Virus record (IMG/VR): IMGVR_UViG_3300042384_001374
Location: 1-64,000 of that record
Strand: one strand, 5' to 3'
DNA from: a virus
DNA length: 64,000 bases
Shown: one piece after another, positions 2,535 through 53,600 of the stretch
Position numbering within the stretch: position 1 is the stretch's first letter
Layout: each line of letters begins with the position of its first letter
Translations under genes and position numbers: made by a program
The notes under the pieces: generated by a model
Told to the model about the DNA's origin: nothing
The model's database searches: none
Seen by the model: the letters and a program-made list of their open reading frames with translations, nothing else

Positions 2535-4723
2535 GACGTGAGGGATTGAAGTTTGAAGTTGGTGAGGCGTTTTTTGTAGTAGCGGACGGCAGCAATGTGC
2601 GAGCCAGACGATCCGATGCTCATCAAATCCGCCCCTGCGAGAATTTCTGACGGTGGGCTATCGGCTGCACTAAGGGTTCCGTTCAAAGCACCTCTGATGT
2701 CGTCCGTTTTATAGGCTAGCGCAGCCCGTGACTCTGGCGTAGGGGATGTTCCAACTGACTGATATTGCGTCACGGCTGCTTTGGTGCAAAAGAACTCAAT
2801 CGGGCTGGAGTCTCCGGTTTTGTTCCCGTTGGTTCCGATCTGAAATCTATTACTGCCTGAGTCAGATGAAACGGCAAACCTTACTATCGGGACATAAGCA
2901 ACCCCTCGGCGAAACTCTGATACCACTGCCACGACAGTCCCCTCGCTCTGATTATAAAACCCACTGAAGGCATACCCCGTAATCGAGCAAACATCCGCAC
3001 TGCGAACCACGGACGCTGTGGTGGTCGGGATGTAGCTGGTTGCAAAGGAGCCTGCTTCGAGTTGTGCTCCCCAGATAAAGATGCCGGATGTCCCGTCGCC
3101 AGTGTATTCTGTGGTAATGCCATCGGAAGACATGCGAATACTCCCCTGTGTTCCCGCAGCACTTGTTACTGTGCAGCGATACCATCCATTACCGAAATTA
3201 GTTATAGTAGGAGTGTTTACGCTTGTGAGTGCTACCCCTGTATCAATGTTAAAAAAAGCATCCAATCCGCCAAGTCTTAAAACAATAAAATTTCTTTCCC
3301 CCTTTTTAGCGAAAACACTAAGTGTATGCGAAGTTGCTGGAGGGGTTACAGTGGAACCAATAGTATGAGTATTTGAAGTGGATGTGTCTTCAACTAATTT
3401 GTCCGCAGTAAGCGCACCATCTGGTGCTGTTGTTGCGTTCGCTGTAATTGATGATCTTGTTTTTGTCCAAGTCGCATCTTCAAATGTTTCTGAGCGAGCA
3501 TATAAATTAGTCCTGCCCTCCTCGATCAGCAAGCCTTTGCACGCGAGGGTGACGGGATCGTGGTCGAAACGTGCAGCGTTAATAGCAGCAGATTGGATAA
3601 GTCCATTGCTTCCCACGAACGTCGCAGCCGAAGCACGGGTAAAAACCGGAGTCGGACCACGGCGGGCGATCAGGGTTTTGTCTCGGGAAAACTGGAGGTT
3701 GAGGCTCAGAAATTCATCGTCTGAGTCCAGCTCGCGGTCCACGTCGAGCGCGTAGGGGATAATCCATCGGCTTTGCGCTGAGCTGTAAAGGTAGAGGATT
3801 TCCGTGGTCGTCCGCATCCACAGCATCCCATCGGTCGGCGATGTCGGGGCGGCGTCGGCAATGGTTACCGGGCCGACGCCTTGGACTCCCTGAATGCCTT
3901 GGATGCCGATAGGTCCTTGCGCTCCGGTCGCTCCGGTCGCTCCGATCACTCCCTGCGGTCCTGTCGCTCCGGTTGCTCCGGTCGAGCCGGTTGCTCCGGT
4001 TGCGCCGATAGGTCCCTGTGGCACGGTCAGATTGAGCACCTGCGCCCCGGCCACTCCAGTAATAGCGACGGCGGCGGTTGATCCCGGCGCTCCGGTAGTA
4101 GTAGTCCCAGCGGTCAGGCGGGAAGCATTTGCGGCGGTGATGGCGCTGGCGGCGGCGTTTGTCGCTGAAGTGGCGGCATTGCTCGCGCTGGTCCCTGCTT
4201 CGCTGGCTTTAGTCGTGGCGGTGCTTGCCGATGCGGTGGCGTTGTCTGCCGAATCGGAGGCGGCGGCGGCTTCGGCGGTGGCGATTCCGGCTTGCGTGGT
4301 GGCCCCGGAATCCGCAGCCGACGCGGAGCTGGCGCTTGCTGCCGCTTCGCTTGCTTTTGTCGTCGCAATCCCGGCTTGCGTGGTGGCCGTGCTTGCCGAG
4401 GTGCTTGCGGATGCCGCAGAGGCGCTTGCTGCGGTCGCACTGCTTGTCGCCTCACCTGCTTTGGTGGTGGCGATGTTCGCTTTTGTGGTAGCAGTCGATG
4501 AGGATGTAGCGGCAGAGGTGGCGCTTGATGCGGCCTCAGCTGCTTTTGTAGTCGCAACCACTTTGGATGCTTCTGCGGCGGCGGCAAAGGTGGCGGCTTC
4601 GTTTTGCGAGTCTAGCCATTGGTTCAGCGTGCCATCAAAGCCATTGGCAAGCGCGAGCTGATAAGCATCTCGCGCCTGCGTGAACGGCGCGGTAATGTCG
4701 ATTTGTGTGATGTGGATGCTCAT
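2531..4723 (-). CDS. Tail/head fibre protein with Ala/Ser/Thr repeats, collagen-like G-X-Y stretch and C-terminal beta-sandwich domain
   Basis: ATTKASEA-type repeats, [10 protein letters not shown] collagen triplets, and [41 protein letters not shown], a motif common in phage fibre/spike proteins. Confidence 0.85.
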
Positions 4724-12036: not shown

Positions 12037-12294
12037 TTAGGCTGGATTGGCAATGACAATTGCCGTGCCGGTAACCGCTGTGACAACAATGGCAAGCTCG
12101 GAGTGGGCTCCATAATTGATCACGGCTTGCTCGGCAGTCAGGGTGACCGGGGTTGCAAATGCTTGGTAAGTACCCGGCGCGGTCAGATACTTGACGGTTG
12201 CCGTGATGGTGCCGGATGTGGCGAAATAGCATGTTTTTCCCGGCGCAATATCCACAAGATAAGTTCCGGTAGCGGTGATGGTGAGCTTTTGCAT
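12037..12294 (-). CDS. Small beta-rich hypothetical virion protein
   Basis: 85-aa ORF between terminase and portal. Confidence 0.5.
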   Translation of the reverse strand: MQKLTITATGTYLVDIAPGKTCYFATSGTITATVKYLTAPGTYQAFATPVTLTAEQAVINYGAHSELAIVVTAVTGTAIVIANPA

Positions 12295-38498: not shown

Positions 38499-38886
38499 CT
38501 TTTAGCCACAACTAAAATACAATGCCACACTACGAAATCGAAATCACAGCCAAAAAAATGATCTGCGTCGAAGCCGACGATGAAGATGAAGCTCTGGAAA
38601 TCGCAGAAGAAAATGTTGGTATGGGTTGGGACACGTCAAATGTCCAAACCGAAGACGAATACGACGAAAGCAACCCGCACCACGCTAAGTGGATTGCAGA
38701 ATACAAACGCAACGGTGAGTTTTATTCAAATTAAATCTTCCTTGATGGCCGCATAGCGGAGTCAGGAAACGTGCATACGGACAAAGGCCCGGAAAATGGC
38801 ATTGATGTCGTCTCAAGGCTTCGGACGGAACCGCTACAACGTCATGGTAGCGCCGCAAACGGTAAGCGGCCCTAGCTTTCAAAACA

Positions 38887-39219
38887 ATGAACACCTCATT
38901 CACTCCCGGTTCTTGGAGCGTCTTCAATCCAAGGCTTCGAACCAATCCTTCGTCAGAGCATCGACTTCTTGTCGTTCATCCTGACGGAGAGCGCATCATA
39001 GCCCGCATGGACGAAGGCTTCGTTAATGGGAAAGGAACTATGACGCTGAAAGAAAGAGAGGCCAACGCCCGCCTTATAGCGGCCAGCCCAGACCTTCTTT
39101 CGGCGATTCAGGAAATGTATTCCATGTTCTACGCCCACGAACAATACGACGACAACTCCGCAGCCGCAGTCAAGCTCGCCCGCGCCTCCATTAACCTAGC
39201 CACTGGACAAGAGCCATGA
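38887..39219 (+). CDS. Small phage protein (TPGPW...ANARLIAA family)
   Basis: FTPGSW...EANARLIAASPDLL; paralog at 39988-40326. Confidence 0.65.
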   Translation: MNTSFTPGSWSVFNPRLRTNPSSEHRLLVVHPDGERIIARMDEGFVNGKGTMTLKEREANARLIAASPDLLSAIQEMYSMFYAHEQYDDNSAAAVKLARASINLATGQEP

Positions 39220-39987
39220 AAGTGTGCCACAGCCAAATCACCCCCCGTCTCGACCATTTCAAGGCGGAAGAGCGCGGCGCGATGGTTTCCATCATGGCGG
39301 TAGGACATCTCGTCTCTATCAAAGTCCAAGACAAAAACGGCAAGGGGTTTGATCGGATGATTTCCTTCAACGATCTAAACCGCTTGCTTTTCACCATCCC
39401 AGAACAACCCGACCGAGGATACAACCGAATCCCATGAACCAAGAAACCATAGCCCTTGTCTTCATGGCGGACGACACAAGATCCTTTTTCATTGAAGGGC
39501 CTCCTTTTGGGCCTCCTGAAAAGTGGATTAAGCAGTTTGTTGCTCACGTCGCAGAAGTGGAATATGTCGAAGTGTTCGAACTGGGTTCACGGGCTCATTT
39601 TTGGTGCAATCCAAACGTCTGTCCAGAAAATGAATTTTAATTTATGAATCCGCCCGCACCCGATCAACCCACAAAAGACCAGCTCATTGAATTATTTTCA
39701 GTTTTCAATACAGTCTCCGGAGCATTGCAGCTCGACATCAGCCGGGTAATGGCTACCAAACCAGATGTCGCTGCACAGCTCAAAAAACAATTCGAAAGCA
39801 ACGAGCAAGACCAAACGTGGGCGATGGATCAAGCCGCTTACCAATACCTGAAAATCTTCCCTCTCGCCCAAATGAACCGCACCAACATGTTTTGCCGACT
39901 TGCCGCACTGCATTCCGGGTTGACCGGCGACCCGCTGATGCGCGAGGTGTTTGAGGAAGTCAACCGGAGGGTCATCGACAAAGATTT

Positions 39988-40326
39988 ATGATCAAAACAC
40001 CATTTACTTCCGGGCCTTGGACATATGATCCTTTCATTGATACTTTCAGCATCGGAATGATTGCAGTAGGCCCTGATCCAGACAATTATCCAGTTGCCCA
40101 TGTTGAATCGTGGAATGGAGACGGTCCTGACTGTGAAGAAGCCAAGCGTGCTCTTGCCAATGCTCGTCTAATTTCCTCCGCGCCACGCATATTTCACGCT
40201 CTGCAAAATCTCGTTGCTTCATTTGACGGGGGCGGAGCCTTCGGCGGGAAAGAATGGGGATACAACCGAAAGTTTGCCATCGAAGCCCGCGCCGCGCTTG
40301 CTGAAGCTCTCGGTGAATCCGCTTGA
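39988..40326 (+). CDS. Small phage protein (TPGPW...ANARLIAA family)
   Basis: FTSGPW...ANARLISSAP. Confidence 0.65.
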   Translation: MIKTPFTSGPWTYDPFIDTFSIGMIAVGPDPDNYPVAHVESWNGDGPDCEEAKRALANARLISSAPRIFHALQNLVASFDGGGAFGGKEWGYNRKFAIEARAALAEALGESA

Positions 40327-40363
40327 ATTCCATTTTAGCCACGAATAAAACAACCACTCAATC

Positions 40364-41560
40364 ATGACCACCACACCAACTCCGCTCTACTACGACAACT
40401 GCCTGCTCACCGAAGACGATTTGCCCAATCTCGCCGCCGAGCACAAAATTCCATTCACTGATCTGCAAAAAGCCTGCGAGCAAATCCGCAGCAAAGGCGA
40501 AGTGCTTTACAGTCTGTATCCAAACACCACGCGAGAGCGGCTGCGGACGTTCGCAGCGTCCATCACCTTTGAGCCTGATGAAGCTTTGGATTACACCCCC
40601 GGAGAAGACCCCACTCCATGCCTTGTTGTAAATAGTCCGCAGGAGGCAGCCACAACGTCTTTGGTCACCGTTGAGGCACATACTGACGCCGAAGCAGTTC
40701 AAAGCCCGCTAAAGCCGCGCAGCAAAGCAAAGAAAAGCAAACTGGAAGAATCCGTGTTCGATCTCGCAGCCGAACTTTACGATGAAGAAGAAAATGATGA
40801 ATCCACCGAACCTGCCCCGGTCACCCAGCGCGACGAAGTGGTGGAAAGCGCTTCCGTTGCGCTAATGCAGGCAATGGTCGGTGACAGCGCCTCGTTCATC
40901 ATCACCGAGGAAGGCATCTGCTCCATCAACCCGGCGCACCCGCCTACCTTGGTGCATTCCTACCAAGTCGTCTCGTCTGTCCTACGCTTGTCTGACCTGT
41001 CTGACAAAGTAAACGACAAAGGCTGCTGGATGCTTGGCTCAATCCTTGCTGCGTTGGAAGACTACCACGGAGAAAACTTCAACGTCGGACAGGTGTGCGA
41101 GCAAACTGAAAAAGCAGAAAACACCATCCGCACTGCACTGTCTGTGTTCAAAGCGTTCAAAGACAAACGTTACAACCTGTCATTCAGTTCGCACAAGGAA
41201 GGATTTCACATGAAAGCCCCGCTGGAAGTGAAAAAGCTCATCCTGCACAAAGCCGAAACTTACGAACTGACCACCAAGCAAATTCGGGCGCTCGGCAGCG
41301 TGTATCGAGCGATGGAAGACGACACCACCATTCGCAACATCCGCAGCAAACAGCAGGCTTTGGATTTGGTTTCGGCGGTGGAAAGCGTCAAAGTGAAGTG
41401 GTTGGTCTATGAAGACGGCAGGATGGTCGAGCTAACTCGCACAGACGGCTCAACCCCAGACGGTCAGATGGCCATCAATCTAAAAGACAAAGTGTTCTTC
41501 ATCAACGGCGAAAAAGCCGGAGAGGTGGAACGCATCGGCGTCAAAAAAGCCGTGAAGTAA
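40364..41560 (+). CDS. Hypothetical protein upstream of the helicase
   Basis: 398-aa ORF; no family recognised. Confidence 0.65.
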   Translation: MTTTPTPLYYDNCLLTEDDLPNLAAEHKIPFTDLQKACEQIRSKGEVLYSLYPNTTRERLRTFAASITFEPDEALDYTPGEDPTPCLVVNSPQEAATTSLVTVEAHTDAEAVQSPLKPRSKAKKSKLEESVFDLAAELYDEEENDESTEPAPVTQRDEVVESASVALMQAMVGDSASFIITEEGICSINPAHPPTLVHSYQVVSSVLRLSDLSDKVNDKGCWMLGSILAALEDYHGENFNVGQVCEQTEKAENTIRTALSVFKAFKDKRYNLSFSSHKEGFHMKAPLEVKKLILHKAETYELTTKQIRALGSVYRAMEDDTTIRNIRSKQQALDLVSAVESVKVKWLVYEDGRMVELTRTDGSTPDGQMAINLKDKVFFINGEKAGEVERIGVKKAVK

Positions 41561-41604
41561 AATTGATTTTAGCCGCAACTAAAACTGAAAGGAGCACCCG
41601 ACCC

Positions 41605-43029
41605 ATGAGCAAAATAAAGAATCTCAGCGAAGACATCACCAAAGCGCCACCACATGCAATAGGACCTGAAAAATCCACTCTTTCATCTATGTTGCAAGAA
41701 CCCGGACGATTTATCCGGCAAGCGCTCAATGAAAATCTAGTTGTTGACGACTATTACATTCCAGCCCATCGCCATCTTTATCAATTTTTGCTCAAACTTC
41801 ACGAACAAGGAGAGCAAATCGAATTGGTGTCACTGGTCCAGCGGCTACTTGACAACGGGCAGCTTGATCGAATTGGAGGCGCGTCGACACTTGCCGAGCT
41901 GCATAACTACGCTATCGGACACAGCCATTTCTCTCTTCATTTGTCTCAAGTGAAAGACAAAGCGGTGCTGCGGGAAATCATCCGAAAAGCAAACGCACAA
42001 ATCCGTGCGGCTTACGAACAGCCCGATGAAGTCAAAGAGCTGGTCAACCAGCTTGCTTCGGACGCCGCTGAAATGGCGGTGAAGACCGAAAACCGGGCGT
42101 CCGATTTCAAAAAGTATCGCGAACAAATTGTCACTCCGGATTCGATGAAAGAACAAGTGGTCAGCTACCTCAACGGCGACCGGGTGCTTGGTGGAGACGG
42201 CTTTTTCCTTTCCCCGTTCGATCTCGCATTCCGCAAGCACGAGTGGACGGTGTGGTGCGGAACGAGCACCCACGGCAAATCGCAAGCCGTGCAGAATCAG
42301 CTCGCTTGGCTTGCATCGCTCGGCCGCAAGTCGATCATCGCTTCGCTGGAGCAGCCGCCCGAAATCACGCTTGGTCAAATCCTCAAGGCAATGACCGCCT
42401 ACAAGGACATCGCAAGAAGCGAGGAATTCGAACCGGCGTGGGGCTACATAAACACCCAGATCCAGATGTATCGCGGGCAACGCAAGACCAGCCCGAAGCA
42501 TCTCATCGAAACCTTTCGTCAAGCCTATCTGAACAACGGCACGGACACCGGGGTGATTGACAACCTGATGTGCCTGCAAGTGGATAGAGGCGACAACTCG
42601 GCCTTGGCGAACGCCATCGACATGTTCCGGGTGTTTGTTTCGGAGTATCCATTTCACCTTCATCTTGTCGTCCACCCCCGCAAACCGGGAGGCAACGAAT
42701 CACCCAACCGCGCACCCACCCAAGCCGACATCCGTGGACCGGCAGAAATCGGCGATCAACCGAACAACGTCATCGTCATTTCCCGAGACTTGGACAAGAG
42801 CCGAAAGCTCGCCGAGATGGAAGCGGGGCATTTCTCCAAGCTCGAACGCGAAGCCTTCTGGCAAAGCACTCCCTGCGGCAAGATTGCGGTTGAAAAGCAG
42901 CGCATGACCGGCTCGATGCCCATCAAGCACACTTGGTTTGACCCGGTTTGCAACCAGTTCATGGATCACCCCGGCAAAGCCAGACCGATGTTCTTGATTC
43001 CACCGTGGGAGGTTGAGCCTTTGGCTTGA
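41605..43029 (+). CDS. dnaB: DnaB/SF4 replicative helicase
   Basis: DnaB N-domain PPHAIGPEKSTLSSML, Walker A GTSTHGKS, ASLE, VIDNL, VVHPRK and EKQR. Confidence 0.85.
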   Translation: MSKIKNLSEDITKAPPHAIGPEKSTLSSMLQEPGRFIRQALNENLVVDDYYIPAHRHLYQFLLKLHEQGEQIELVSLVQRLLDNGQLDRIGGASTLAELHNYAIGHSHFSLHLSQVKDKAVLREIIRKANAQIRAAYEQPDEVKELVNQLASDAAEMAVKTENRASDFKKYREQIVTPDSMKEQVVSYLNGDRVLGGDGFFLSPFDLAFRKHEWTVWCGTSTHGKSQAVQNQLAWLASLGRKSIIASLEQPPEITLGQILKAMTAYKDIARSEEFEPAWGYINTQIQMYRGQRKTSPKHLIETFRQAYLNNGTDTGVIDNLMCLQVDRGDNSALANAIDMFRVFVSEYPFHLHLVVHPRKPGGNESPNRAPTQADIRGPAEIGDQPNNVIVISRDLDKSRKLAEMEAGHFSKLEREAFWQSTPCGKIAVEKQRMTGSMPIKHTWFDPVCNQFMDHPGKARPMFLIPPWEVEPLA

Positions 43030-43584
43030 GAGCTTAGTATGAACGATTCAGTCACTCTTTGTTCTTTCTGCAACAAACCAGCAACCACCTATCACATTCC
43101 GCCCAATGTAAACAGCAAAACCTTCGCTGCCATCCCACTTTGCGGCGGCGATCATCGCGGCGGCGTCCGAACCAAAAAGAAGTCTAAAAAATGCGCGACA
43201 TAGCCATGATGGAAATTCACCGGAGGACCAAAGGGGTGGGCCGCAGCAAGCCGGGCGACATCTCTGGTTGTTTCGACATTGCGATGGGCCACAACCGCTA
43301 CGCAGGCCCGAGAACAGCCGTGTGCAAGGTGATGGTGAAGCAAGGTTGGGAGTGCTTGACCATCGCAATCAAATACCGGGTCAGGAGCCGCCTCTACGAA
43401 CGGGCTCCCAATCCGTCTGAAGAAGCTCGCCTGTTGCCGCTGTTCTTCCACGAATGGGAGCTGCCCATCCGGGTGTTTGTGATGCCAATCGACATCGACG
43501 CACCCGCAAGATATTTGCTTTCTGAACGCAGCAACCAACTTATGGATCATTTACCCCAATTTTAGCCAAAACCAAAAACATTTC

Positions 43585-43854
43585 ATGTCATCCACCGAAC
43601 AAATCCTTGCCGAGCGTCCAGCGACTCACGGCCGCTTTGAGGACAACTCGCGCATCACCTGCGACATCATGCAGGTGCTTCAACAATCTCCAAACTGGAA
43701 ATTGACTTCTCCAACCATCAAAGTTGGAACCATCATGATCGTCCACAAATTAGCCCGCGCTTTCTCCGGTGATTTGAACTATTCCGATCATTGGCTTGAC
43801 GTGGCAGGTTATGCCAGTCTGATTTTCGACACCAACCAACAACCAACCAACTGA
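43585..43854 (+). CDS. DUF6378-like protein
   Basis: ILAERPATHGRF...KLARAFSGD..YSDHWLDVAGYA. Confidence 0.75.
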   Translation: MSSTEQILAERPATHGRFEDNSRITCDIMQVLQQSPNWKLTSPTIKVGTIMIVHKLARAFSGDLNYSDHWLDVAGYASLIFDTNQQPTN

Positions 43855-44045
43855 CATCATGCTCTCACGAATCCACGTTCTCACTGAAAAGCTCACTGCC
43901 GCCACCGCTCCGATTTTCATGGAGCACAAAACCTACGATGACATTCTTGCCGCCATGTGTTTGTTGATGGCGCGTATTGTGCAGTCAACTCCGGAAAAAG
44001 GTCAGGAACTTCAAGTTTTAGACAACGCTCAAAACCAAATTTCCC

Positions 44046-44750
44046 ATGCTCTCACGCAATTCCTCAAGCTTGAAGAACAAATTATCAACGCCCGTGCGGC
44101 CGAAAGGGACCGGGCTCGGAAACTCGTTGAAGACGGCATTGCTGGTTTTGGAGATCTTACCGTCGTCAACGGAAATGAGTTTGGACCCGCTTTTGTCGGA
44201 AAGCCAGTTGCCATTGAAGCAGAAACCATTTTGCAAATTGACGACAGGCTCCCAGAAGATGATGAATTTCCCGATTCATTCGAAGCGACCAGTTCCAAAG
44301 ATCAAAACGACATGGCCAGCGACATTGAAGACGGCTACAACCCGGACGGCCCGAGAAGTTACGCACAAGGCATTTAAAAAAGCCCGCAAGCAGTCCGCTG
44401 GCGCTCAGCGTCGCAAAGCCCTAGAAGCCTCTTACAAAGCTGCCTGTGAGGAAATACATCCTGAAGCCGTTTGTGCCGTCTGCGGCGTCCGTAGCGAAAG
44501 CGCAGGCATGGAGCGCCATCACGTCGCGGGCCGCCGTAAAGCCAGCATGTGCTTCTTCGTTCTGCTCCACACCCCGTGTCATCACGAAAGGGTCCACGCC
44601 AATCCCAAATGGGCCGAAGCAAACGGTTTGCTCTGGAGTGGTCGCAACTCTAAAACCCTTACTCTTGCCGACGCAAACCGACTTCTGGCTTTAATGCCGC
44701 ACCCGCCAAGCGATTGCATTCCTCGCTGGATCAAGCACACGCCTCAATAA
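44046..44750 (+). CDS. HNH-like/Zn-finger nuclease candidate (true start probably near 44320)
   Basis: CAVCG...ERHHVAGRR...LHTPCHHERVH. Confidence 0.55.
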   Translation: MLSRNSSSLKNKLSTPVRPKGTGLGNSLKTALLVLEILPSSTEMSLDPLLSESQLPLKQKPFCKLTTGSQKMMNFPIHSKRPVPKIKTTWPATLKTATTRTAREVTHKAFKKARKQSAGAQRRKALEASYKAACEEIHPEAVCAVCGVRSESAGMERHHVAGRRKASMCFFVLLHTPCHHERVHANPKWAEANGLLWSGRNSKTLTLADANRLLALMPHPPSDCIPRWIKHTPQ

Positions 44751-44754
44751 ATTT

Positions 44755-45150
44755 ATGACCAACACACCTACACTCGACCAACTCGAAGCCCTTGTCCTAG
44801 AATGGGGAAAAGCCAAAGGCATTCTCGAACACGCTACGCCAGAATCCCAGTTTCGCAAAACTCTGGAAGAGGTTCAAGAAATTGCAGACGGACTTGAATT
44901 TGGAATTGATGAAGAAATTCTGGATGGTATCGGAGACACGGGGGTAACTCTAATCTTGCTTGCCGCCCTTAAAGGCTGGACGTTCCGTCAGTGTCTTGCG
45001 CACGCCTACGGCATTATTTCCAAACGCACCGGACGAATGGTTGATGGAATGTTCGTGAAAGATGTTCCGTCAAGCGATGATGACCTTGGTGAACTAGACG
45101 CGTCCAAAGCTTGTCGTGTGGGTGATGAACCCTGCGAAAGCTGCCAATAA
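44755..45150 (+). CDS. MazG-like nucleotide pyrophosphohydrolase
   Basis: QFRKTLEEVQE...DGIGDTGVTL...AYGIISKRTGRMVDGMFVKD. Confidence 0.85.
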   Translation: MTNTPTLDQLEALVLEWGKAKGILEHATPESQFRKTLEEVQEIADGLEFGIDEEILDGIGDTGVTLILLAALKGWTFRQCLAHAYGIISKRTGRMVDGMFVKDVPSSDDDLGELDASKACRVGDEPCESCQ

Positions 45151-47268
45151 TTTTAGCCACGGCTAAACAAATCCCGTCCGTAAACAATCGGACAAATGAC
45201 CGAAGCGTGATTGCAAGCGCGTGACGGCAAGAAGCCTATATGGTAAGTGGCTCCCCATCTGCTCGGCGTGGTAACAACTGACCGGGCGCATTCTCCAGCC
45301 AACCCAACTCATAAGCGAACATTACATCGGCCGCGCCGCCGAAGCTGCCGCCCGAGCCCGTCACAACCGAATCCACAAACCAATGAAAAAGACCGCCAAG
45401 AAAAAGACCGCCGCCAAGAAAGTTCCAAGCAAGCAGGCCCGCGCCTTCTCGCAAGCCTTGGAGACATTCAAGAAGCCTGAGTCCCCAATCGAACTTCAGC
45501 ACGCGGAACACCTGCTTGTTCGTAAAATTGGTCAGGTGATAAAAGAACCGGCTGACAGCTTTGTGGATTTGCCTAATTCCGATCCAGTTCCAGAGCATGC
45601 CGAAAATTGGGAATCCGTGCCCAACTACGGCCCTTCCACCGAAGTGGACGAAGAAGCGATGGCTCGCGAGGTGTTGTTTGGCGAGATGCCAGTTTCTGAT
45701 GCTCATGCAGCAGCCGTAGAAGCGTCGCCGCCTAACCTTGGCCACATAGTGCCACAAACCACACCCGACGCGCCACAAACGCCCCTACACGACGAAAAGC
45801 TCGGACAAAACCTTAAACCATCCGAAACCACCGACGATCAACTCGACCCAGAGCAACTCGCCAACAACATTGAGCTGCTGATCGACTCGCTCAACTTCAT
45901 CCACGACCGGGGATGGCTGCGCAAAATGCAGGAAAAAGACATCCAAATCGTCAAAGCCCGCATTAAGTGCGGACGCAAAATTATCAGTCAACTCCGCAAC
46001 TAATTTTAGCCACGACTAAAATGGAAGAGATCAACCTTGCCGCGCCTAACCAGCAAAAAAAAAGCGGCTTTATTCTGCGTCCAACCCCGGACCCGGAACC
46101 TCCCGTCGTCGTTCCGTGCTGCCAATACGTTCTTACCGATACCCAAGAATACTCAGTATTCTGGAATCCTTTCAACAAAGTAGTGCAATGTCACAACTGT
46201 GGACACATCTGGACCCCGGAATCCATCAAGTGAGCAAAAAACCCAAAACCAAAAAAATCGGAGTCAAGGAACTGCTTGCGCTTTTAGGTGCTGATCCAAA
46301 CGAAGCTATCCCAACCGGACTGCGCGAAGCGGAATGGGCCACGCAATTAGAAGGCTGTGAACATGAGCCCGTCGGGCTTGGGAAATGCTCAACAACCAGC
46401 AAGGTAATGTTCTTGTCATTCTCTCAAGCCAAAGCCGCCAGCAAGCGCCGTCTCAAGCGCGGATCAAATGCCAACGCTTTCCGGATTTATCTGTGCCCGG
46501 ATTGTTCGCACTTTCACATGACCAGCCAAGTCAAACGCTCATGACTGAAACCCTACCACATAAAAAAGACGACCAAGACTTCATCGACAAACACGGCCGC
46601 AACCACACTTGCGAATGCGGTTTGACCAACATTTGGAGCCCACGTTTCGACATGTGGATGTGTTCCGGTAACCTCGCCAAATACAAAGCACTCTACAAAA
46701 ATTCCCTTGAAGTATGAATTCCATCTGCCACTACAAAGAAAACGAACAAGGATATTGGAATTCCGATTGCGGCAAAACATTTGACTCGATCACTTGGCAC
46801 GATTATGCCCGCGATTTTATTTGGTGTCCCTATTGCGGATCTGAAATGAATTCTGAAATGCACATGTCAAAACAAGACCTTAAAGAAGATCGCGGCGACC
46901 GGGCGCATCAAGAAAGGAAAGATGACGAAGAGTGAGCGCAAAAAAGAAAACAGCCCAGCACGTTTATGCGCTAAAAGTCAGCGAGATCCTAAAAAAGCTG
47001 GGAATCCCTGAGGCCAAACAAGACAAATTCGGAAATCCTTATATCAACCCGGAATATTTGACGCGCCTTCCAGTTACGGTAAAATCTGATTACCAGTCAA
47101 AAGATTGCCACCGGGTAATTTTCAAGCTTTATAAGCAATAGAAACAACCAAAAAACCCAAAATCATGACTACCATTGACATTGTAATTTTAATTTGGTCC
47201 GCCGTCATCGGCGTAATTTTCATTTTTTGGCATGTTTTTATCAGCGGGAGAAGGGGACGATAACTTTT

Positions 47269-47676
47269 ATGGAAAATACAATACAAAGCGAAGTAACGTT
47301 GCCATGCACGCCTAGTGATGCATTTAAAATGGTGGAATTCATTCGCCGATACAATAGGTGGAGGCGCGGCGACGAATCGCTTGAGATGGAATCACCGAAA
47401 GCCATTGGAGATGCCCTTGATGCTGTTTGCAGCTTTATAGAAACTCTAGAACGCGAGCAAGACGAATGGGTCGCCAAAGCGGTAGAGCTATGCGCCGAGC
47501 GGGAATCCAATGCCATGCAGGCGTTGGCGTATAAAGCCGAGCGGGACGAGGCGCGTGCAATGGCGCGTGACATGCGGAACCAGCTCGAAAAGGCATCAAC
47601 GGCCCGACTGCTCTTTCCTTCCGAGAACGCTGGGGGCCATGCGCCCGGAGTAAAAGATCAAGCCAATGAAAAGTAA
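47269..47676 (+). CDS. Hypothetical protein ending inside attC A
   Basis: Coiled-coil ORF; stop lies in the attC loop. Confidence 0.6.
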   Translation: MENTIQSEVTLPCTPSDAFKMVEFIRRYNRWRRGDESLEMESPKAIGDALDAVCSFIETLEREQDEWVAKAVELCAERESNAMQALAYKAERDEARAMARDMRNQLEKASTARLLFPSENAGGHAPGVKDQANEK

Positions 47677-48001
47677 CAGAAAAGCTTCTCCGGGTCGTAT
47701 GCGCTCCCTTGTTCGTCCGTGGCAGGAACTCGCGACCCATGCTGACAAAACAATCACGCCGACCGTGGGTGAGACGCTGGAATACCTCTGGGATGGCTAC
47801 CGTGGAGAGGGGCAATGGAGGTCATGCACGATCACACGGATTGATGAGGGGCAATCATGGACGCGACTCCATGCCCGAATGTATTGGGGTTTCGATCACG
47901 CGGATCGCCACCCACGCGAACAAATACTGCACCCACGGGCATTCCGTCGGACGAACGCTAGGGCTATGACGCCAGCAACTGAATCAGACCATGGAAAGTA
48001 A
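47666..48001 (+). CDS. Cassette ORF (hypothetical)
   Basis: Starts in attC A and ends in attC B. Confidence 0.6.
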   Translation: MKSNRKASPGRMRSLVRPWQELATHADKTITPTVGETLEYLWDGYRGEGQWRSCTITRIDEGQSWTRLHARMYWGFDHADRHPREQILHPRAFRRTNARAMTPATESDHGK

Positions 48002-48350
48002 CAGAAAAGCTATTGAGGGTCGGGCATCAGCCCCTTGTTCTCGGTCTTTTGATGACCTACTGGAGAGCTTGGACGCATGGATCGAGGACGCGCTAAAAGG
48101 CTCGAAGCCTATCGGACTAACGCTATCCCGCGCCCGCACCACCATCACCGATCAAAGGGATAGGATCGGGGAAATCTTCGATGCGTTGGAATGCCAGAAT
48201 AAGGAAGTGGAAAAGCTCCGCGCCGCCATCCGAAACCTCCGCGATGTAAAGGGACGCCATCATACGCAAATCGCCACGGAACAACTCTTCGCCCTTCTTC
48301 CCGAGAACGATGAGCCCATGCGCGGCGAAAATGGAACGAATATGAAATGA
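47991..48350 (+). CDS. Cassette ORF (hypothetical, coiled coil)
   Basis: Starts in attC B and ends in attC C. Confidence 0.6.
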   Translation: MESNRKAIEGRASAPCSRSFDDLLESLDAWIEDALKGSKPIGLTLSRARTTITDQRDRIGEIFDALECQNKEVEKLRAAIRNLRDVKGRHHTQIATEQLFALLPENDEPMRGENGTNMK

Positions 48351-48427
48351 AATTGAGGAGCTTCTGGCCGTCGAATGCGGCGGCTTGTTCTCTGAATCAG
48401 CCCGAATAACACGAACGACGACGATCA

Positions 48428-48637
48428 ATGAAAGACGAAGATATAGCCGATGCCGAAGCGCAAGGATTTGCTTCCCTCAAGTGGGACGCCGCCGAAAATC
48501 GAGATATCAAAACCGCCCTTGAAATGCAAAAGGCGGAAACGGAATCACTTTGCCGTCTGGCGAAGATGATTGAACAACCCGACCCGGAAGATCCAACGAA
48601 AGCCGCCGACTGGTGGAAACCTGAAACCGACCAATGA
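48428..48637 (+). CDS. Cassette ORF (hypothetical)
   Basis: 69 aa, coupled to the next ORF. Confidence 0.5.
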   Translation: MKDEDIADAEAQGFASLKWDAAENRDIKTALEMQKAETESLCRLAKMIEQPDPEDPTKAADWWKPETDQ

Positions 48638-49047
48638 AAAACAACCGCACGCAAAAAGAAGTGATCCAAGAACGCCAACGAAATGCCGGGTCCAATATCG
48701 CGGCGTATCTGCCAAAACCTCCTGGATCGTATGGAAACCCTTACGAACGGCAACAGACCGCAAACAAGCCGCAGCATCTACGTCCTGATTCGGAAGGCTG
48801 GTGGTGGAGGCTTTGTAAGGGCGAGTGGGAATGCGGCAAGGCTGAATACATCCAGTGGGAAGACGCTGGAGAACCCGAACAAGAGCGAGTATTAGCGTGG
48901 TCCCGTGGAGGATGTTACACGCGATGCGACCAAATCAACCTTCGCTTGGACTCTGGGACACGCTGGTTCAAAGCAACTCCGCCCATCTTGGATTCAGAGA
49001 ACACAACCAGCCCATCTACGGGCGCAACTGAAAAAGATCATGAGTGA
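48634..49047 (+). CDS. Cassette ORF (hypothetical)
   Basis: Ends in attC D. Confidence 0.55.
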   Translation: MKNNRTQKEVIQERQRNAGSNIAAYLPKPPGSYGNPYERQQTANKPQHLRPDSEGWWWRLCKGEWECGKAEYIQWEDAGEPEQERVLAWSRGGCYTRCDQINLRLDSGTRWFKATPPILDSENTTSPSTGATEKDHE

Positions 49048-49405
49048 GAAAATGGAAAGCGATAGCCCGTTAGATGCGGCGACTTGTTCGGCTCTTCTTG
49101 ATGCCTCGCTCGACCTGCTCGCCGGATGGTGCGATGCCGTGAAAAACGGCGGCACTGGGTGGGATGATTGGGACGGATGGTATAAAGACGCCTGCTATCG
49201 CCCCGGCCCGCTGCGCGAACTGATCGATGCTCGCATAGCGAAGATCGCCGCCGATGAATCTGAATGTCCGAGATGCCATGCAACGCGCACATATTACGAC
49301 GGGTGGAACTGTCCGACTGAAGGATGTGATTCTTTGCCGAACGCATCAGCGATGGCACCGCCGCCCCAGCGGCTGCCATCCACGAAGGACGTTCCCGGCG
49401 GTTGA
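49040..49405 (+). CDS. Cassette ORF with C-terminal Zn ribbon
   Basis: ATG 49040 lies in attC D; CPRC..CPTEGC; stop lies in attC E. Confidence 0.6.
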   Translation: MSEKMESDSPLDAATCSALLDASLDLLAGWCDAVKNGGTGWDDWDGWYKDACYRPGPLRELIDARIAKIAADESECPRCHATRTYYDGWNCPTEGCDSLPNASAMAPPPQRLPSTKDVPGG

Positions 49406-49448
49406 CCATCCGCGTCTTGTTCTGGGTCTTTTTGGGGGCGCGAAAAAA

Positions 49449-49500
49449 TATGAGAATCTCATAAAATAAATGTTGACCTTGTGCGAGAATCTCGTAATGT
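49449..49500 (+). promoter_or_regulatory. Sigma70 promoter overlapped by two palindromic operators
   Basis: TTGACC(49473)-16 nt-TAATGT; operators TATGAGA-A-TCTCATA (49449-49463) and CGAGA-A-TCTCG (49484-49494). Confidence 0.7.
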
Positions 49501-49546
49501 CTCCCCAGTTGCACGACGCAACGCCAACACCAAACCAAACACGAAA

Positions 49547-49819
49547 ATGAAAATCACCATCAGCCACGACCAAGACAGCATCGACCCATCCGCCACCTAC
49601 TCCGACGAGCAATTCGTGGAAGTCCGCAAGGCTCTCGAAGCCGAATACGAAAAGGCCATCCTCGCCGAATACCCCGAAGCCGAAATCGACTTCAGCGGCA
49701 CTGACACCACCTACGCGATCCGCGTAACCGGAACCGAAATGGATGACCCGAGCGAGATTGAGGAGAACGTGCAAAGCATCTGCGAAAGCGTCTTCGAAAC
49801 CGGAAACTTCTGGATCTAA
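49547..49819 (+). CDS. Small highly acidic protein (anti-defence/DNA-mimic candidate)
   Basis: 90 aa with 22 D/E versus 5 K/R. Confidence 0.6.
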   Translation: MKITISHDQDSIDPSATYSDEQFVEVRKALEAEYEKAILAEYPEAEIDFSGTDTTYAIRVTGTEMDDPSEIEENVQSICESVFETGNFWI

Positions 49820-50004
49820 TGTTCGCCGATCAACTCAAAGATGAGCGCAAACGCCTCGGCCTGACACAGGCCGGGGCGGATGCCGTCCTCGATACCTGTC
49901 GGGGACAGGTAGCCGCATGGGAAAGCGGACGCAACACGCCGCACGTCCTCACTCAGGAGGGAGCCTTGGCACGCCTCCGCAACCGGAAGACTCCGCGCAA
50001 ATGA
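49819..50004 (+). CDS. XRE/Cro-type HTH regulator (Aca-like context)
   Basis: LKDERKRLGLTQAGADAVLDTCRGQVAAWESGRNTP. Confidence 0.85.
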   Translation: MFADQLKDERKRLGLTQAGADAVLDTCRGQVAAWESGRNTPHVLTQEGALARLRNRKTPRK

Positions 50005-50079
50005 TTCTTCCCCAGAACGCAATAGGTGAGGCACGGGCGGACAACGCCAGCCCGCCACAAGATCAAAATCTCTAATCAC

Positions 50080-50379
50080 ATGGAAACTCCGAATCAAACC
50101 GACCCGCCCGTTGACCTCGACCGCCTTGTTCGTCCTTCTTGGTTCAAGGGGGACGCGGCTTGCGACTGGCATGAAGATGCTGGCCACGAGAACGGCAGCT
50201 ACTACTGCAAGTGCCTCGACTGCGATGCTGACTTCGTGGGGCATAAACGCCGCCACATCTGCCGCAAATGCCACTACGAAGCCAAGGCCAGATATGACGC
50301 TCTGACCCCCGAAAAACGGGCGGCATTTGATGAAAAACGAAACGCCGAAATCAGGGCATTCTTTGAGACGAACGCCTAG
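50080..50379 (+). CDS. Cassette ORF with Zn finger
   Basis: ATG lies in attC F; GSYYCKCLDCDADFVGHKRRHICRKC. Confidence 0.65.
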   Translation: METPNQTDPPVDLDRLVRPSWFKGDAACDWHEDAGHENGSYYCKCLDCDADFVGHKRRHICRKCHYEAKARYDALTPEKRAAFDEKRNAEIRAFFETNA

Positions 50380-50394
50380 CTCATGCACCCGCCC

Positions 50395-50640
50395 ATGAAA
50401 GACTCCGAATCAAACAAAGACGCTCCGGCGGGTTGCATGAAGCGACTTGTTCGTCCTCTTTATTCGATGCAGCGATGCAGGAAGGATAATTCCAGATACG
50501 GGAAAATCCACTTCGCGCATCATGAATTCGAAACGCTTTGTGGGCTGACTACGGATTCCGACTGGTGGGTTCTCACAAACAGGCATGACGGCGATGCGAC
50601 ATGCGCAAAATGTATTAAGACGAACAGCAGTTGTTCGTAG
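50395..50640 (+). CDS. Cassette ORF with His/Cys Zn-binding motif
   Basis: ATG lies in attC G; IHF...TLCG...ATCAKC. Confidence 0.6.
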   Translation: MKDSESNKDAPAGCMKRLVRPLYSMQRCRKDNSRYGKIHFAHHEFETLCGLTTDSDWWVLTNRHDGDATCAKCIKTNSSCS

Positions 50641-50699
50641 TGCCCGACCGCACGAATAATCAGCGAAGCAAATAATGAAATTTTAGTTGAGGCTAAAAC

Positions 50700-53600
50700 C
50701 TATTTGTTTTCTTTGCGAATCACCTCGCGCATTTCGGCGCGCTTTTCCGCTCTCGGCTCTCTGGCAAACGGAATAGCTTCAAATGTCAAATAGGTGGCCG
50801 CGTCCAGCAACGAAGCCGCCCGGTTGCGTTGCGCTTCCCTGCTCATCAAATATTGCGAAGTAAGGACGCCCGCTTCCAGCGCGTCGTGAGCCATAGCGGT
50901 AGGTGCGGTCAAGTCAGCCAGTGAACCGTGCCACGAGTCTTTGTAAGAGCGAATGGTAACACCGTTCTTGTCGTAGCTTCCAAAGCCTGCTTTAAGCTGT
51001 TTGCGATTAAACGTGTTGTTTAATCCAGCGGCTCCGGCAATTGCCATCGGGTTAGTGACGGTTTTCTGCACCAACCCGGAGACCGGTGCGTAACCCGCCA
51101 TTACCCCCAGCACTGGCACTGCTGTGGTTAGTTCCAGCAAGCTTCTGGAAGCAATTTCAGCAAATGCCGACGCCTGCGCCGCGTCTGCTTTTTTGGTCTG
51201 GTCAAACAATTCCCGTTTGTTGCCAAACGTGATGGTTTTAATGACTTCGCCGAGCATAGAGCTTTTTTTGTCCACGAACATCCACTCGTTGGCGAGTTTC
51301 TGAGCTTTTTTCTGGGCCTTGTCATCATCGTCGCCGCCTGCCAAAAAAAACAAATAAGACACCATTGGCACCAGCATTTGAAGCTTAAACGGGTAAAACA
51401 AAATGTTTTGGGTCAGTGAGGTGACCACGTTCTCCAGCGCCTCTTTCTTGGTTTCCGCGTCAGCCTTTTCATCAAACAAAATGGGCACCAAAACCGAAGT
51501 GTTGGACGCCATGCTCGACGTGTGATTGCTGAAGCGCACCATCGAACGCCACAGCGCGTTGCGGCCGGGCGAAGATGTCCGGTTCTGAAACATCCACGAT
51601 TTCTTGCTTTGGTCCGACTGAGCCATCACATCGTTCACCTTGCGCCGGGCGTTGCTCTTTGCCATCGCGGTGGGCTCGACGTTCGATTTGACCACGTCGG
51701 CCGGTTCCATCTTCATCTGGTCAGCCAGCTCGACAATGAACATCGCCGTGGACAAGTAGGACTCACCCTTGCCAATAGTCCAATGAAGCGCCTTCTCGCC
51801 GAGCTTTTCGTATTCCCGAAGCCCTTTGCCAGCAAGGTTCTTGGCCGTGCTTTTCCCAAACCTGACTTGGCTGTGCATGATGTCACGCGCCACATCCGCG
51901 CCGTCCGCCGAGCGGTAATACACCGAACGGTCGGTCTTGCGGACAAACTCCCGAGCCTGTTCATTGAATTTTCGGTCGGTGATCAGCTTTTGCAGGATGC
52001 TGAAGTATTGCGCTGCTTGCTTGCCCTTTCCAACCGCAATCTTGCCAGCGGCATACCCTACTGAAGGGCCTGTCGTCTGGTTCCAAACTTGTTGAAGGCT
52101 CGCCAAAGCCCGGACTATGTACAACGATCCGAGAAAGCGCATTGCTTCCGCGCCACCCGTGTTGCTCACTCCGTTGGCAGCGTCGTTTTGGAGGATCGTC
52201 TCGTTTTCTTCCGCGATGGCGGAAAGAGCTTGGCGAAACTTTTTAATCTCGTCCTCAGCTTCCTGCTTGGCTTTGCGCTGGGCCGGATCGTTCCAGTCGA
52301 TGTCGTCAGGAATCATCTCGTTCGCTTTATTGAGAAAGTCACCGTCTTTGATGGTGTTCACGCCGTGCTCATCCTGCACCACGCGGCCGAGTGAACGCCG
52401 CAGCACCTCGTAAGTCGGAGTGACGTTCAGCTTATAGATAGCGTCGTCCAAAAGCGAAAGCGGCGCGGTAAGTCCGTTCAATGAAATCGGACGGAACGGA
52501 TTGCGGGAGTTGAAGTAGCCACCCTTGCCGTAGCCGCCGAAGAACGACGAGTCCTTCAACGACACCATGTCGATGGGGTCGGCGATGAAGCGGTCGGAAC
52601 TGACCTGCTGCTCTGCCGGGTCGGGGCGTGCCGCGTAACCAACACGCAGCGGCACGGACGAATAGGTAATCTTGAATGCCTCCTTAGCGTCGTCCCGCCA
52701 CGACTCGCCCGTCACCATGCGCTCGCCCTTCAGCAACTCGCCCGGCTGCTTGTCCACCGCCGCATCCTGCGACAACATCGCCATGGTAAGCTGCATCGCG
52801 CTACTGATGTCGGCAAACGACCTGTTGAGCTGCTGGGCATATCCTTCGACCGCAGCCTCGTTACCCAGAGTGACTTTCGATTCAAGCAGTGCAATGAATT
52901 TGTCCGTCAGCTCTTTCGCTATTTCCGGCGAGCTAATGATGGTATTCGAAATGCCGGATTCCAGCATCCATCCGCGAACTTCCCGAGCCAGTTCCAAATC
53001 ACGGATCATGTCGAGATTATCCGCGTTCCAGTAGCGGTTCAGTTTTGGAATTACTTTGCCGGTCGGAATAGGATTTTTGTTCGCATCCAAAACAGCCTTG
53101 CCATCCGGGCCTTTTACCAGCTCGCCAAAATACAATCCTTGCGCCCGATTCAGGTTTTCCAACTCGTTCAGTCCACGCCCGATGTCGGTAACCAAGCGGT
53201 TGGTCGCCGTCTCGCGGTGCATTCCGAATGCTGTGTCGATGCCTCGGAACACCGAAATGAGGTAGCCGATGGTTTGGTCTTTGGCGTTATTACCAATCGG
53301 CTTGGCCGCCTTGACGATCTTTTCCTCCTCCGCTTTTTTGGAAGTCTCATAGCCTTGGCGTCCGCTGGTGCCGTCGATGCCATATTCGATGAAGTCTTGC
53401 AAATGGATAGCGGCTTGGCGGGCAGCGAAGTTGCGGCGGAACTTGCTACGAATGCGAGCGTCTTGGTGATGCAAGAATTTCAAGGCTCCCAATTCCAGAG
53501 CATGCTTCTTGCCGTCAAACGATACAAAATCAGTAATCAGGCACTTCTGGATTTCTATTGCTTCAATTTCGGCGAACGCCAGCGAAAACACCGGCTCCAC

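Follow-up and report, generated by a model that had tools for sequence, protein, structure and literature searches.

The array lies in a complete lake-water phage genome of 76,099 bp, of which the first 64,000 nucleotides (IMG/VR record IMGVR_UViG_3300042384_001374) form the window analyzed here. Seven structured sites, all on the + strand, occupy positions 47622-50455 and delimit seven cassettes (Table 1). The original prediction had listed seven imperfect palindromes together with complementary core pairs, and all of these sites and quoted pairs are found at the positions given for them. In site 1 the + strand corresponds to the bottom strand, and the R' and R'' boxes read CGAGAAC and GTTCGTC. 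The attI-core-like end has two inverted boxes without a hairpin body and contains the stop codon of ORF J. Its core is similar to the bacterial attI-proximal junctions GAAC-AGTTTTGTTC, GAAC-AGTTAAATTC and GAAC-AGTGG. The array of an unrelated phage locus (L010) terminates in ...GCGAAC-AGTGTTATTATG, and the attI junction of a bacterial locus (L023) reads ...TCGAAC-AGTGGTATTATG.

Table 1. Sites, cassettes and genes of the array, in window coordinates.
Feature	Coordinates	Strand	Evidence
ORF A, backbone gene at far array end	47269..47676	+	homologues are cassettes in L003, L004, L005, L008, L010
attC-like site 1	47622..47717	+	R1 64.8 bits; R2 45.5 bits; fold
Cassette 1, C of GAA^C to next GAA	47628..47955	+	ends complementary 5 nt beyond core
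ORF B, 111 aa, cassette 1	47666-48001	+	no family match; codon score weak
attC-like site 2, three-extra-base type, T at position 24	47950..48043	+	R1 54.0 bits; R2 37.2 bits
Cassette 2, ORF C (119 aa, 47991-48350)	47956..48307	+	codon usage; complementary ends
attC-like site 3	48302..48393	+	R1 71.8 bits; R2 65.3 bits
Cassette 3, ORFs D (48428-48637) and E (48634-49047)	48308..49001	+	complementary ends; codon usage positive
attC-like site 4	48996..49092	+	R1 67.4 bits; R2 56.8 bits
Cassette 4, Cys-rich ORF F (121 aa, 49040-49405)	49002..49341	+	codon score; complementary ends
attC-like site 5, three-extra-base type	49336..49425	+	R1 57.3 bits; R2 42.7 bits
Cassette 5, ORFs G (49547-49819) and H (49819-50004)	49342..50017	+	highest codon score
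attC-like site 6, long variable loop	50012..50134	+	R1 46.8 bits; R2 32.9 bits
Cassette 6, zinc-ribbon-like ORF I (50080-50379)	50018..50372	+	phrog_10481 E = 4e-7
attC-like site 7	50367..50455	+	R1 68.3 bits; R2 55.3 bits
Cassette 7, adjoins attI-like end, ORF J (50395-50640)	50373..50624	+	complementary ends; codon score weak
attI-core-like array end, GACGAAC-AGCAGTT GTTCGTAG	50619..50640	+	sequence

ORF A is mosaic and related to a cassette-borne family, and its last codons (...SEN) hold the left box of site 1; no site is found upstream of it within the window. The alignment of six ORF-A members is too divergent for locus search, and the C-terminus of ORF C is similar to the ORF-A-like cassette found in L004 and L005. 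The prediction placed every ORF on the + strand. Codon usage supports this for eight of the ten ORFs and family matches for ORFs G, H and I, but support for ORFs B and J is weak. ORF G is acidic and DinI-like (Pfam DinI, E = 0.0016), and ORF H resembles XRE-type HTH proteins (HTH_31, E = 1e-4), both matches being below the gathering cut-off. Upstream in cassette 5 there is a promoter-like element, TTGACC-17-TAATGT, which a scan for consensus promoters leaves unflagged, along with two GAGAATCTC palindromes. Cassettes of the relatives hold three DNA methyltransferases, and the phage analyzed here has the DinI-like and HTH pair and ORFans; an accessory or anti-defence role of the cargo is inferred. 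Neither the giant ORF nor the large structural ORFs of the phage have a PHROGs match, and an 'N4-like' label remains unconfirmed. The giant-ORF C-terminus has no relative in IMG/VR, blastn of positions 44000-51000 against the phage collection gives no match, and Rfam returns no family.

The sites have the architecture of attC. Across 31 related sites, 89% of helix cells are paired, compared to 68% in shuffles, and 100 double-change cells are observed versus 33, with none of 500 shuffles reaching the observed value. The AAC and TTGTT motifs occur in 31/31 sites, and the R and L boxes are paired, the R boxes carrying AAC/GTT triplets at their inner ends (31/31 for both triplets). With numbering that starts at the 3'-most base of the 7-nt GTTCnnn box, the order is a 5-nt spacer (positions 8-12), a 3-bp L box (13-15), an extra base (16), a 6-bp stem (17-22) and an extrahelical T at position 23, or at 24 in sites with three extra bases. 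This numbering origin was checked only against attCaadA7. The unpaired T is present in 30 of the 31 sites, and on the + strand it is the 3' arm that holds the extra bases, as expected from the claim that unpaired bases and a conserved T sit on the right arm. The arrangement expected of attC extrahelical bases (position 16, T at 23/24, 6-bp stem, spacer of ~5-6 nt) is therefore present, and extra base, stem, T and spacer occupy the same bottom-strand positions in Nivina 2016 (PMC5027507). Two features deviate. Position 16 is C in 25/31 sites, instead of the usual G, and the extended R-box consensus RYYYAAC/GTTRRRY is not met, the boxes reading GAAC/GTTC instead of YAAC/GTTR (the base beside the triplet is G in 27/31 and C in 27/31 of the related sites). 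Because of these boxes and the C at position 16, a standard integrase such as IntI1 might reject the phage sites. The same R-box deviation is found in IntI-linked bacterial sites of the same family (22/31 and 26/31), to which the position-16 deviation is also common.

A crude minimum-free-energy scan for GAAC...TTGTTC hairpins proved non-specific, and covariance models were used instead. The phage-derived model R1 identifies exactly seven sites in the window, on the + strand only, with scores of 46.8 to 71.8 bits. The next best match has 16 bits, reverse strands stay below 12 bits, and nothing is found in the remaining 12 kb of the genome. The second model, R2, was seeded solely with 31 sites from bacterial MAG arrays, several of them beside bona fide IntI genes, although these seed sites had themselves been found with R1. 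R2 recovers 7/7 window sites (32.9-65.3 bits, E = 9e-14 to 9e-6), again only on the + strand and with no further match in the rest of the 76-kb phage, as well as 12/12 sites in L010 and short attCs beside 45-47%-identical IntI genes. Here R2 serves as a proxy for IntegronFinder's own model in the detection of attC on one strand. Taken with the geometry, the strand-specific matches bear out the proposed attC architecture with minus polarity. A specific 24-nt pattern scanned over 596 Gb gives 19 loci, 7 of which lack a full site and are probably chance; degenerate site patterns were judged too noisy for a scan of that size.

In freshwater Verrucomicrobiota MAGs of the Akkermansiaceae type, sites of the same attC family accompany bona fide IntI genes. 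In three of five MAGs, IntI genes exceed the TIGR02249 cut-off of 265 bits, with scores of 371.8, 358.1, 293.8 and 280 bits. In L023, ~700 nt separate intI from a group of four such sites. Its first cassette has the ends GTTCGAC/GTCGAAC, with ORFs encoded opposite to the strand of the model matches. ORFs are on the top strand in eight bacterial loci and on the bottom strand in the window, L010 and L003. Genes antisense to the canonical orientation had been predicted, and the IntI-linked arrays with the same attC family do carry their ORFs on the other strand. The usual cassette form, a promoterless top-strand ORF followed by attC, is absent from the phage, where the ORFs are on the bottom strand and attC precedes the ORF, but it is present in bacterial arrays with this attC family.

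The window was said to lack an integrase, and this extends to the whole 76,099-bp genome, in which none of the four families searched for (IntI, tyrosine recombinases, serine recombinases and Y1 transposases) was found. The array does not qualify as a complete integron (intI with adjacent attI and Pc), the attI-core-like site standing alone. Seven sites within 2.9 kb and no integrase do fit the class of CALINs, judged without an IntegronFinder run by the definition quoted in 10.1101/2024.07.02.601686 (two or more clustered attC sites without a nearby integron-integrase). With no integrase of its own and genes on the reversed strand, the phage therefore probably relies on the integrase of its host, and host IntI is inferred to be the acting recombinase. 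The sites might instead be recombined by an unrecognized phage-encoded enzyme, such as a novel single-strand hairpin recombinase or nuclease. The host is undemonstrated, L010 has its own recombination module beside the array (AAA_24, Sak4-like, and a PD-(D/E)XK nuclease), and most phage ORFs, including the giant ORF, have no family match, so such an enzyme cannot be excluded. We nevertheless regard it as improbable, given that the tyrosine, serine and Y1 HUH families have no match in the complete genome even at E <= 1, that the sites reproduce IntI-specific extrahelical-base geometry and belong to the family found beside bona fide IntI genes, and that no conserved array-flanking gene is common to the two phage lineages.

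The attC family would point to Verrucomicrobiota as hosts of this uncultured phage group, an inference that rests on attC-family similarity only and is exposed to errors in MAG binning. A search for CRISPR-spacer links between a 20-kb phage segment and 121 genomes found none, giving only short gene-like similarities; the 31-nt match does not lie in a repeat array. No cassettes shared between the phage and the bacterial array loci were detected by tblastn with the phage cassette proteins.

The cassettes carry the footprint of a circular intermediate, in that the start of each is complementary to its own R''. This holds for 7/7 window cassettes, with complementarity extending 5, 4, 8, 3, 4, 3 and 3 nt beyond GTTC/GAAC (12 nt in all for cassette 3). 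Within single sites the corresponding values are 0, 0, 2, 0, 0, 0 and 3 nt (permutation P = 4e-4). Of the 11 site pairs in L010, seven match across 7-9 nt with the core counted, and another across 8/9 nt; complementary cassette ends also occur in L003-L005.

Comparison with related phages reveals that the cassettes are mobile, with turnover at AAC in natural lake populations. The phage contig L001 matches at 99% identity as far as 47630, beyond which it has another hairpin and another cassette. The backbone is kept to 47630 and again from about 50623 in L001 and in contigs from other lakes, and the cassettes between differ. Among Logan contigs of other lake runs, divergence begins at 47630 (with three different continuations), 48309, 49336, 50013/50015 and 50623-50633, the positions 49336 (site 5), 50013 and 50015 (site 6) being loose ends; array parts without Logan contig cover were not counted as absence. 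In addition, L004 and L005 share a 403-nt cassette (99.75% identity) whose limits coincide exactly with AAC...GGAGAAC and whose neighbours differ between the two, though some comparisons draw on the short contigs L003-L005 and L008, which may be bacterial and not phage. Whole cassettes are thus gained or lost with breakpoints at AA^C, which is the outcome the prediction had named as its check. Exchange at AA^C would explain both the complementary cassette ends and the differences between related genomes exactly there. We note that these comparative + strand breakpoints support recombination at AA^C of the bottom strand only indirectly; recombination itself is inferred.

Could the phage simply have captured a host chromosomal integron, with the differences arising by homologous or microhomology recombination between hairpins? 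Within-family attC identity reaches ~90% (L004, L005 and L023 type), enough for homologous exchange; the phages have general recombination genes, and ORF A is visibly mosaic. Yet breakpoints at at least five independent junctions fall at AAC(G), outside the hairpin bodies, and the hairpins flanking a breakpoint are often dissimilar. Moreover, all phage cassettes combine reversed orientation with an in-frame AAC, neither of which is seen in bacterial arrays, so that they are not simple copies of host cassettes. There is, in our view, little chance that passive capture accounts for the array.

The phage attC sites are coding junctions. AAC is in frame 0, as an Asn codon, at 8/8 window junctions, and counts for frames 0, 1 and 2 are 24, 2 and 5 over phage and metagenome sites versus 7, 5 and 4 over bacterial sites. 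The stop of the upstream ORF follows 2-21 codons after AAC, within or just past the incoming hairpin, and the next start is often in the loop; the loop of site 1, for example, contains the stop of ORF A and the start of ORF B. An ATG within the site opens a long ORF in 17/21 phage sites versus 6/31 bacterial sites. In bacterial arrays, 19/31 top-strand ORFs stop inside the site, and these arrays are without start codons inside sites. A protein-level cause of the conserved ...PEN C-termini and ...CS/LVR N-termini was considered and rejected, as one DNA motif is read in different frames. The hairpins might be primarily RNA or translation elements, serving stop/start coupling, processing or termination, with the likeness to attC secondary. 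Most junctions do have stops and starts in the loops, hairpins would form in RNA too because the + strand is that of the mRNA, and two right arms score as terminator-like. This account leaves unexplained the cassette-end complementarity and AAC breakpoints, the strand-specific extrahelical bases (16, 23/24) and the kinship to IntI-linked bacterial sites, which there are antisense to the genes. Because the motif is kept across different reading frames (LVR versus CS), its conservation is at the DNA level. As a primary function the RNA role is hardly credible, even less so than the two alternatives above; a regulatory role in addition to recombination is likely.

We consider it probable that the region is an integrase-less integron-type array, namely a CALIN with an attI-core-like end, whose seven mobile cassettes are reshuffled by host IntI, although this is deduced from sequence comparison and no recombination has been seen directly. 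In this array, each cassette unit on the + strand runs from an attC hairpin through its gene or genes and closes with the left half of the R box that follows. The + strand is the recombinogenic bottom strand, and strand exchange would take place at the left foot of the hairpin, where 5'-AAC is cut between its second A and the C. During infection, host IntI would act on folded single-stranded phage DNA to excise, insert and swap cassettes, through attC x attC exchange or exchange of attC with the attI-like site at 50619-50640. The genes on the bottom strand are co-directional with phage transcription, and expression of the array from a + strand transcript is inferred.

The Vibrio cholerae superintegron is the paradigm of sedentary chromosomal integrons. 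The phage element resembles the chromosomal integrons of freshwater Verrucomicrobiota in its attC family (GAAC/GTTC, C at 16, T at 23/24), complementary cassette ends, homogeneous attC sites per array and attI-proximal GAAC-AG... junction, whereas the bacterial integrons have intI, attI and top-strand genes. It also recalls the promoter-early stem-loop (PeSL) modules of Arbiol, Comeau and Krisch 2010, which are said to flank genes of T4-type hyperplastic regions and reportedly combine an early promoter with a terminator-like stem-loop, the proposed route being homologous recombination. In both, repeated stem-loops bracket small phage accessory genes and modular shuffling is proposed; the present sites differ from PeSLs in lacking a promoter consensus and in their attC geometry, cassette-specific complementary ends and exact AAC breakpoints. 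The closest precedent is the report of CALINs in phage genomes by Qi et al. 2023 (Front Microbiol, PMC9892861), with 2-4 sites in a typical cassette-array structure, where five of six tested phage attC sites were recombined by IntI1. Clusters of attC in phages have thus been published, and the present array is a variant of them. It shares attC arrays without intI in virulent phages, DNA methyltransferase cargo and a proposed bacterial IntI with those of PMC9892861. Unlike them, it has seven sites (12 in L010) with all genes on the bottom strand, attC sites as stop/start junctions with in-frame AAC, an attI-core-like end, AA^C turnover in natural populations on a 99%-identical backbone and a specific candidate host attC family.

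A broader interpretation is that some freshwater phages keep a 'mirror-image' cassette pool with attC as universal coding junctions, parasitizing host IntI at their own attI-like core so that accessory and counter-defence genes can be rearranged. With the polarity reversed, captured host cassettes, such as defence systems, would stay silent, and so would phage cassettes in host arrays. We give this slightly less than an even chance. Were it true, most cassette orders would leave genes properly terminated, in many cases with stop and start overlapping, and a few junctions would yield fusions. Integrons count as bacterial devices, and the chromosomal ones have recently been presented as stores of anti-phage defence genes; the 'mirror-image' pool would be the phage counterpart of these defence biobanks.

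The array suggests that lytic-type phages use integron machinery without encoding it, and this hypervariable array has a gene orientation and coding architecture unlike every bacterial array examined. The recombination-site family leads to a host prediction, Verrucomicrobiota, for the uncultured phage group. The array may also provide a tractable system for the action of host IntI on infecting phage DNA, for the joining of attC to genes at cassette creation, attC itself being coding here, and for the question of whether phage and host cassette pools are separate or shared.

A check of the sequence recovers all seven attC-like hairpins of the array, together with every complementary core pair of the original prediction, at unchanged coordinates. 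Segment by segment, the cassette ends are complementary over 5, 4, 8, 3, 4, 3 and 3 nt beyond the GTTC/GAAC core, compared with only 0, 0, 2, 0, 0, 0 and 3 nt for the ends of single hairpins (permutation P = 4e-4). The covariance model R1, seeded with 16 sites, picks exactly these seven sites on the + strand only, with scores of 46.8 to 71.8 bits. Elsewhere in the window nothing exceeds 16 bits, the other 12 kb of the genome contain no site, and reverse strands stay below 12 bits. Pairing is maintained across 31 related sites, where 89% of cells are paired versus 68% in shuffles; double-change cells number 100 against 33 expected, a value reached by none of 500 shuffles.

The bottom strand of attC carries AAC in its 5' R' box and extrahelical bases on the opposite arm, at position 16 and as a conserved T at 23/24, with a 6-bp stem between them; the spacer measures 5-6 nt and unpaired regions are purine-rich (Nivina et al., PMC5027507). 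Because the geometry of the phage sites (see table) matches this description, we read the + strand as the attC bottom strand, which upholds the polarity originally proposed. AAC and TTGTT are invariant across the sites, and the loops are 0.59-0.63 purine on the model-hit strand. The sites differ from canonical attC in having GAAC/GTTC rather than YAAC/GTTR boxes, and C rather than G at position 16.

Architecture of the attC-like sites on the + strand, with positions numbered from the 3'-most base of the 7-nt GTTCnnn box
Feature	Positions	Occurrence
Unpaired spacer	8-12	
L box, 3 bp	13-15	
Extra base	16	C in 25/31 sites
6-bp stem	17-22	
Unpaired T	23 (24 where the site has a third extra base)	30/31 sites

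Related phages differ in their cassettes, with breakpoints at AAC, as expected of an integron-type array. The independent IMG/VR contig L001 matches window 38767-47630 at 99% identity and departs just past GAGAACGC, where it continues into another hairpin and another cassette with its own complementary ends, GTTCGGC/GCCGAAC. In other lake-water runs, Logan contigs span the backbone as far as 47630 and again from 50623/50633 onward, leaving the array uncovered. Their loose ends fall at 47630, 48309, 49336, 50013/50015 and 50623, and three different continuations occur at 47630, one of them of the L001 type. Two short metagenome contigs, L004 and L005, share a 403-nt cassette (99.75% identity) that runs exactly from the AAC of one site to the GGAGAAC(GCC) of the next, with different neighbors on both sides. 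The hairpin body moves together with the segment downstream of it, which on sequence evidence puts the point of exchange at the AAC of the hairpin's left foot (+ strand), in agreement with the polarity derived from geometry.

A similar array is found in a different phage (L010/L011), the backbone of which has no nucleotide similarity to that of the window phage. All 12 of its sites lie on the + strand, most pairs of cassette ends are complementary over 7-9 nt, and the cargo includes MT-A70 and N6_N4 DNA methyltransferases; a cassette of the metagenome contig L003 encodes an NPPY methyltransferase. Upstream of the 12 sites, L010 130-5749 encodes AAA_24 (Sak4-like), an SbcC-like AAA_23 ATPase and a PD-(D/E)XK nuclease, and this array therefore lies within a recombination/replication module.

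The right end of the window array (50619-50640) reads GACGAAC followed by AGCAGTT GTTCGTAG. These two inverted boxes without a hairpin body resemble an attI core. In bacterial attI-proximal junctions GAAC is followed by AGTTTTGTTC, AGTTAAATTC or AGTGGTATTATG. The L010 array ends with GCGAAC and AGTGTTATTATG (12753-12772), which after AAC is identical at 11/12 positions to the attI-proximal junction of the bacterial locus L023, TCGAAC followed by AGTGGTATTATG (2096-2114). At the other end, ORF A (47269-47676) is mosaic. Toward the N-terminus it is similar to cassette-borne homologues with a RRYNRWRRGDESLEME motif, in the middle it shares 87% identity with a non-cassette gene of L006 and L007, and its C-terminus resembles the metagenome contig L008. 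An attC upstream of ORF A seems to have been lost.

The absence of an integrase, first noted for the window, extends to the whole phage genome, in which no IntI is detected even at E <= 1. At the same threshold the genome has no match to a tyrosine recombinase, serine recombinase or Y1 transposase, and no tyrosine recombinase is matched in the partial records of L001, L010 and L011. When each prokaryote species is represented by one genome, 19 loci match a 24-nt pattern taken from the most common right arm, versus about 0.3 expected. These belong mostly to freshwater Akkermansiaceae or Verrucomicrobiota MAGs, with additional loci in Gemmataceae and one Nitrosomonadales MAG. Full sites are present in 12/19 loci and arrays in eight, and three of five such MAGs encode IntI above the NCBIfam curated cut-off (371.8, 358.1, 293.8 and 280 bits versus 265). 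In L023, intI (2280-3704, minus strand) adjoins four sites; the first cassette is limited by GTTCGAC (1565) and GTCGAAC (2096), and the site at 828-920 is, by eye, about 90% identical to the L004/L005 type. The layout here is co-directional, with intI transcribed toward the cassettes, and the protein is extended N-terminally by about 160 aa. The usual divergent layout is seen in L036, a second integron of this Verrucomicrobiota MAG.

The model R2 was seeded with 31 sites of bacterial origin only, with the caveat that these were found using the phage-derived R1. R2 recovers all seven window sites on the + strand only (32.9-65.3 bits) and nothing else in the genome, as well as 12/12 L010 sites, and has matches in 63/121 genomes sampled from the family of the MAG carrying L012. 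Short attCs beside IntI genes of 45-47% identity score lower (19-34 bits). Such IntI relatives of the MAG enzyme occur on three IMG/VR contigs classed as viral (L041, L042 and L043), with attC sites of 60-67 nt upstream of the IntI gene in the canonical divergent layout. These contigs may represent phage-borne complete integrons or misclassified bacterial DNA.

Stretches of late genes of the phage (window 1677-1903, 3921-4006 and 4946-5045) show 67-83% identity to DNA of several sampled Akkermansiaceae-type family genomes. Common tail, prophage or host-like domains could account for this similarity, a weak pointer to the host. The 25 nt at 12198-12222 are matched exactly at chromosomal positions in four genomes of this family; the stretch is not a tRNA.

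The IMG/VR virus record is 76,099 bp long, has direct terminal repeats and is rated complete; its first 64 kb form the window. Minus-strand genes occupy 1-16 kb, followed by + strand genes between about 18 kb and 50.64 kb. Convergent with the array is a giant minus-strand ORF of roughly 5,280 aa, which starts at 50700 and runs past the window end to about 66542 of the genome (3-3542 of L002, the rest of the record). The 18-bp palindromes TTTTAGTTGAGGCTAAAA and TTTTAGCCACGACTAAAA mark gene junctions at 50683-50700, between the array and this ORF, and at 46004-46021. Family matches of the phage include primase/helicase, MazG and tail lysozyme. Three 1,400-1,500-aa segments of the giant ORF gave no PHROG match at E <= 1e-5 and the large structural ORFs have none either; the label "N4-like" is therefore unconfirmed.

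In eight bacterial loci, cassette-filling frames run opposite to the model-hit strand, which is the canonical arrangement, whereas those of the window, L010 and L003 occupy the hit strand itself. The phage genes are thus antisense to the canonical attC orientation, as originally claimed. The accompanying statement that every ORF is on the + strand is sustained by codon usage for 8/10 window ORFs and only weakly for ORFs B and J; family matches of weak to moderate strength exist for ORFs G, H and I. Long ORFs start from an in-site ATG at 17/21 phage sites versus 6/31 bacterial sites, and top-strand ORFs end within 19/31 bacterial sites. The conserved AAC serves as an Asn codon at each of the eight window junctions, in a frame that has been open for 57 or more codons before it and that ends 2-21 codons on, inside or just beyond the hairpin of the incoming cassette. 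For site 6 the frame in question is not that of ORF H, which ends at 50004, shortly before the site, but an overlapping one of 52 aa (49917-50075) that may not be a gene. AAC falls in frames 0, 1 and 2 at 24, 2 and 5 phage and metagenome sites, versus 7, 5 and 4 bacterial sites. Read-through at a few junctions would yield fusions. Since translation of the right arm gives LVR in one frame and CS in another, its constraint is inferred to act on DNA and not on protein.

Phage arrays are not without precedent: 17 phage CALINs were reported by Qi et al. 2023 (PMC9892861), who described them as structurally typical and found that IntI1 recombined 5/6 tested phage sites. Our literature search found no paper on reversed, coding attC arrays, on their population turnover or on an attI-like core in phage. 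In the short contig L004 (117-2312), one reversed ORF-A-like cassette with a bottom-strand gene occurs together with two cassettes carrying long top-strand ORFs, which hints at contact between phage and bacterial cassette pools. The contig may itself be bacterial, and could be either a bacterial array with a phage-type cassette or the converse.

The array as first observed is confirmed and its interpretation as an integron-type array is supported; the action of IntI and the mechanism remain inferred. We propose that a host IntI would act on folded + strand DNA of the replicating phage to excise, insert and swap cassettes at AA^C, with replication resolving the recombination products. Captured host cassettes in canonical orientation would be antisense to phage transcription; the reversed cassettes would be those that the phage can express.
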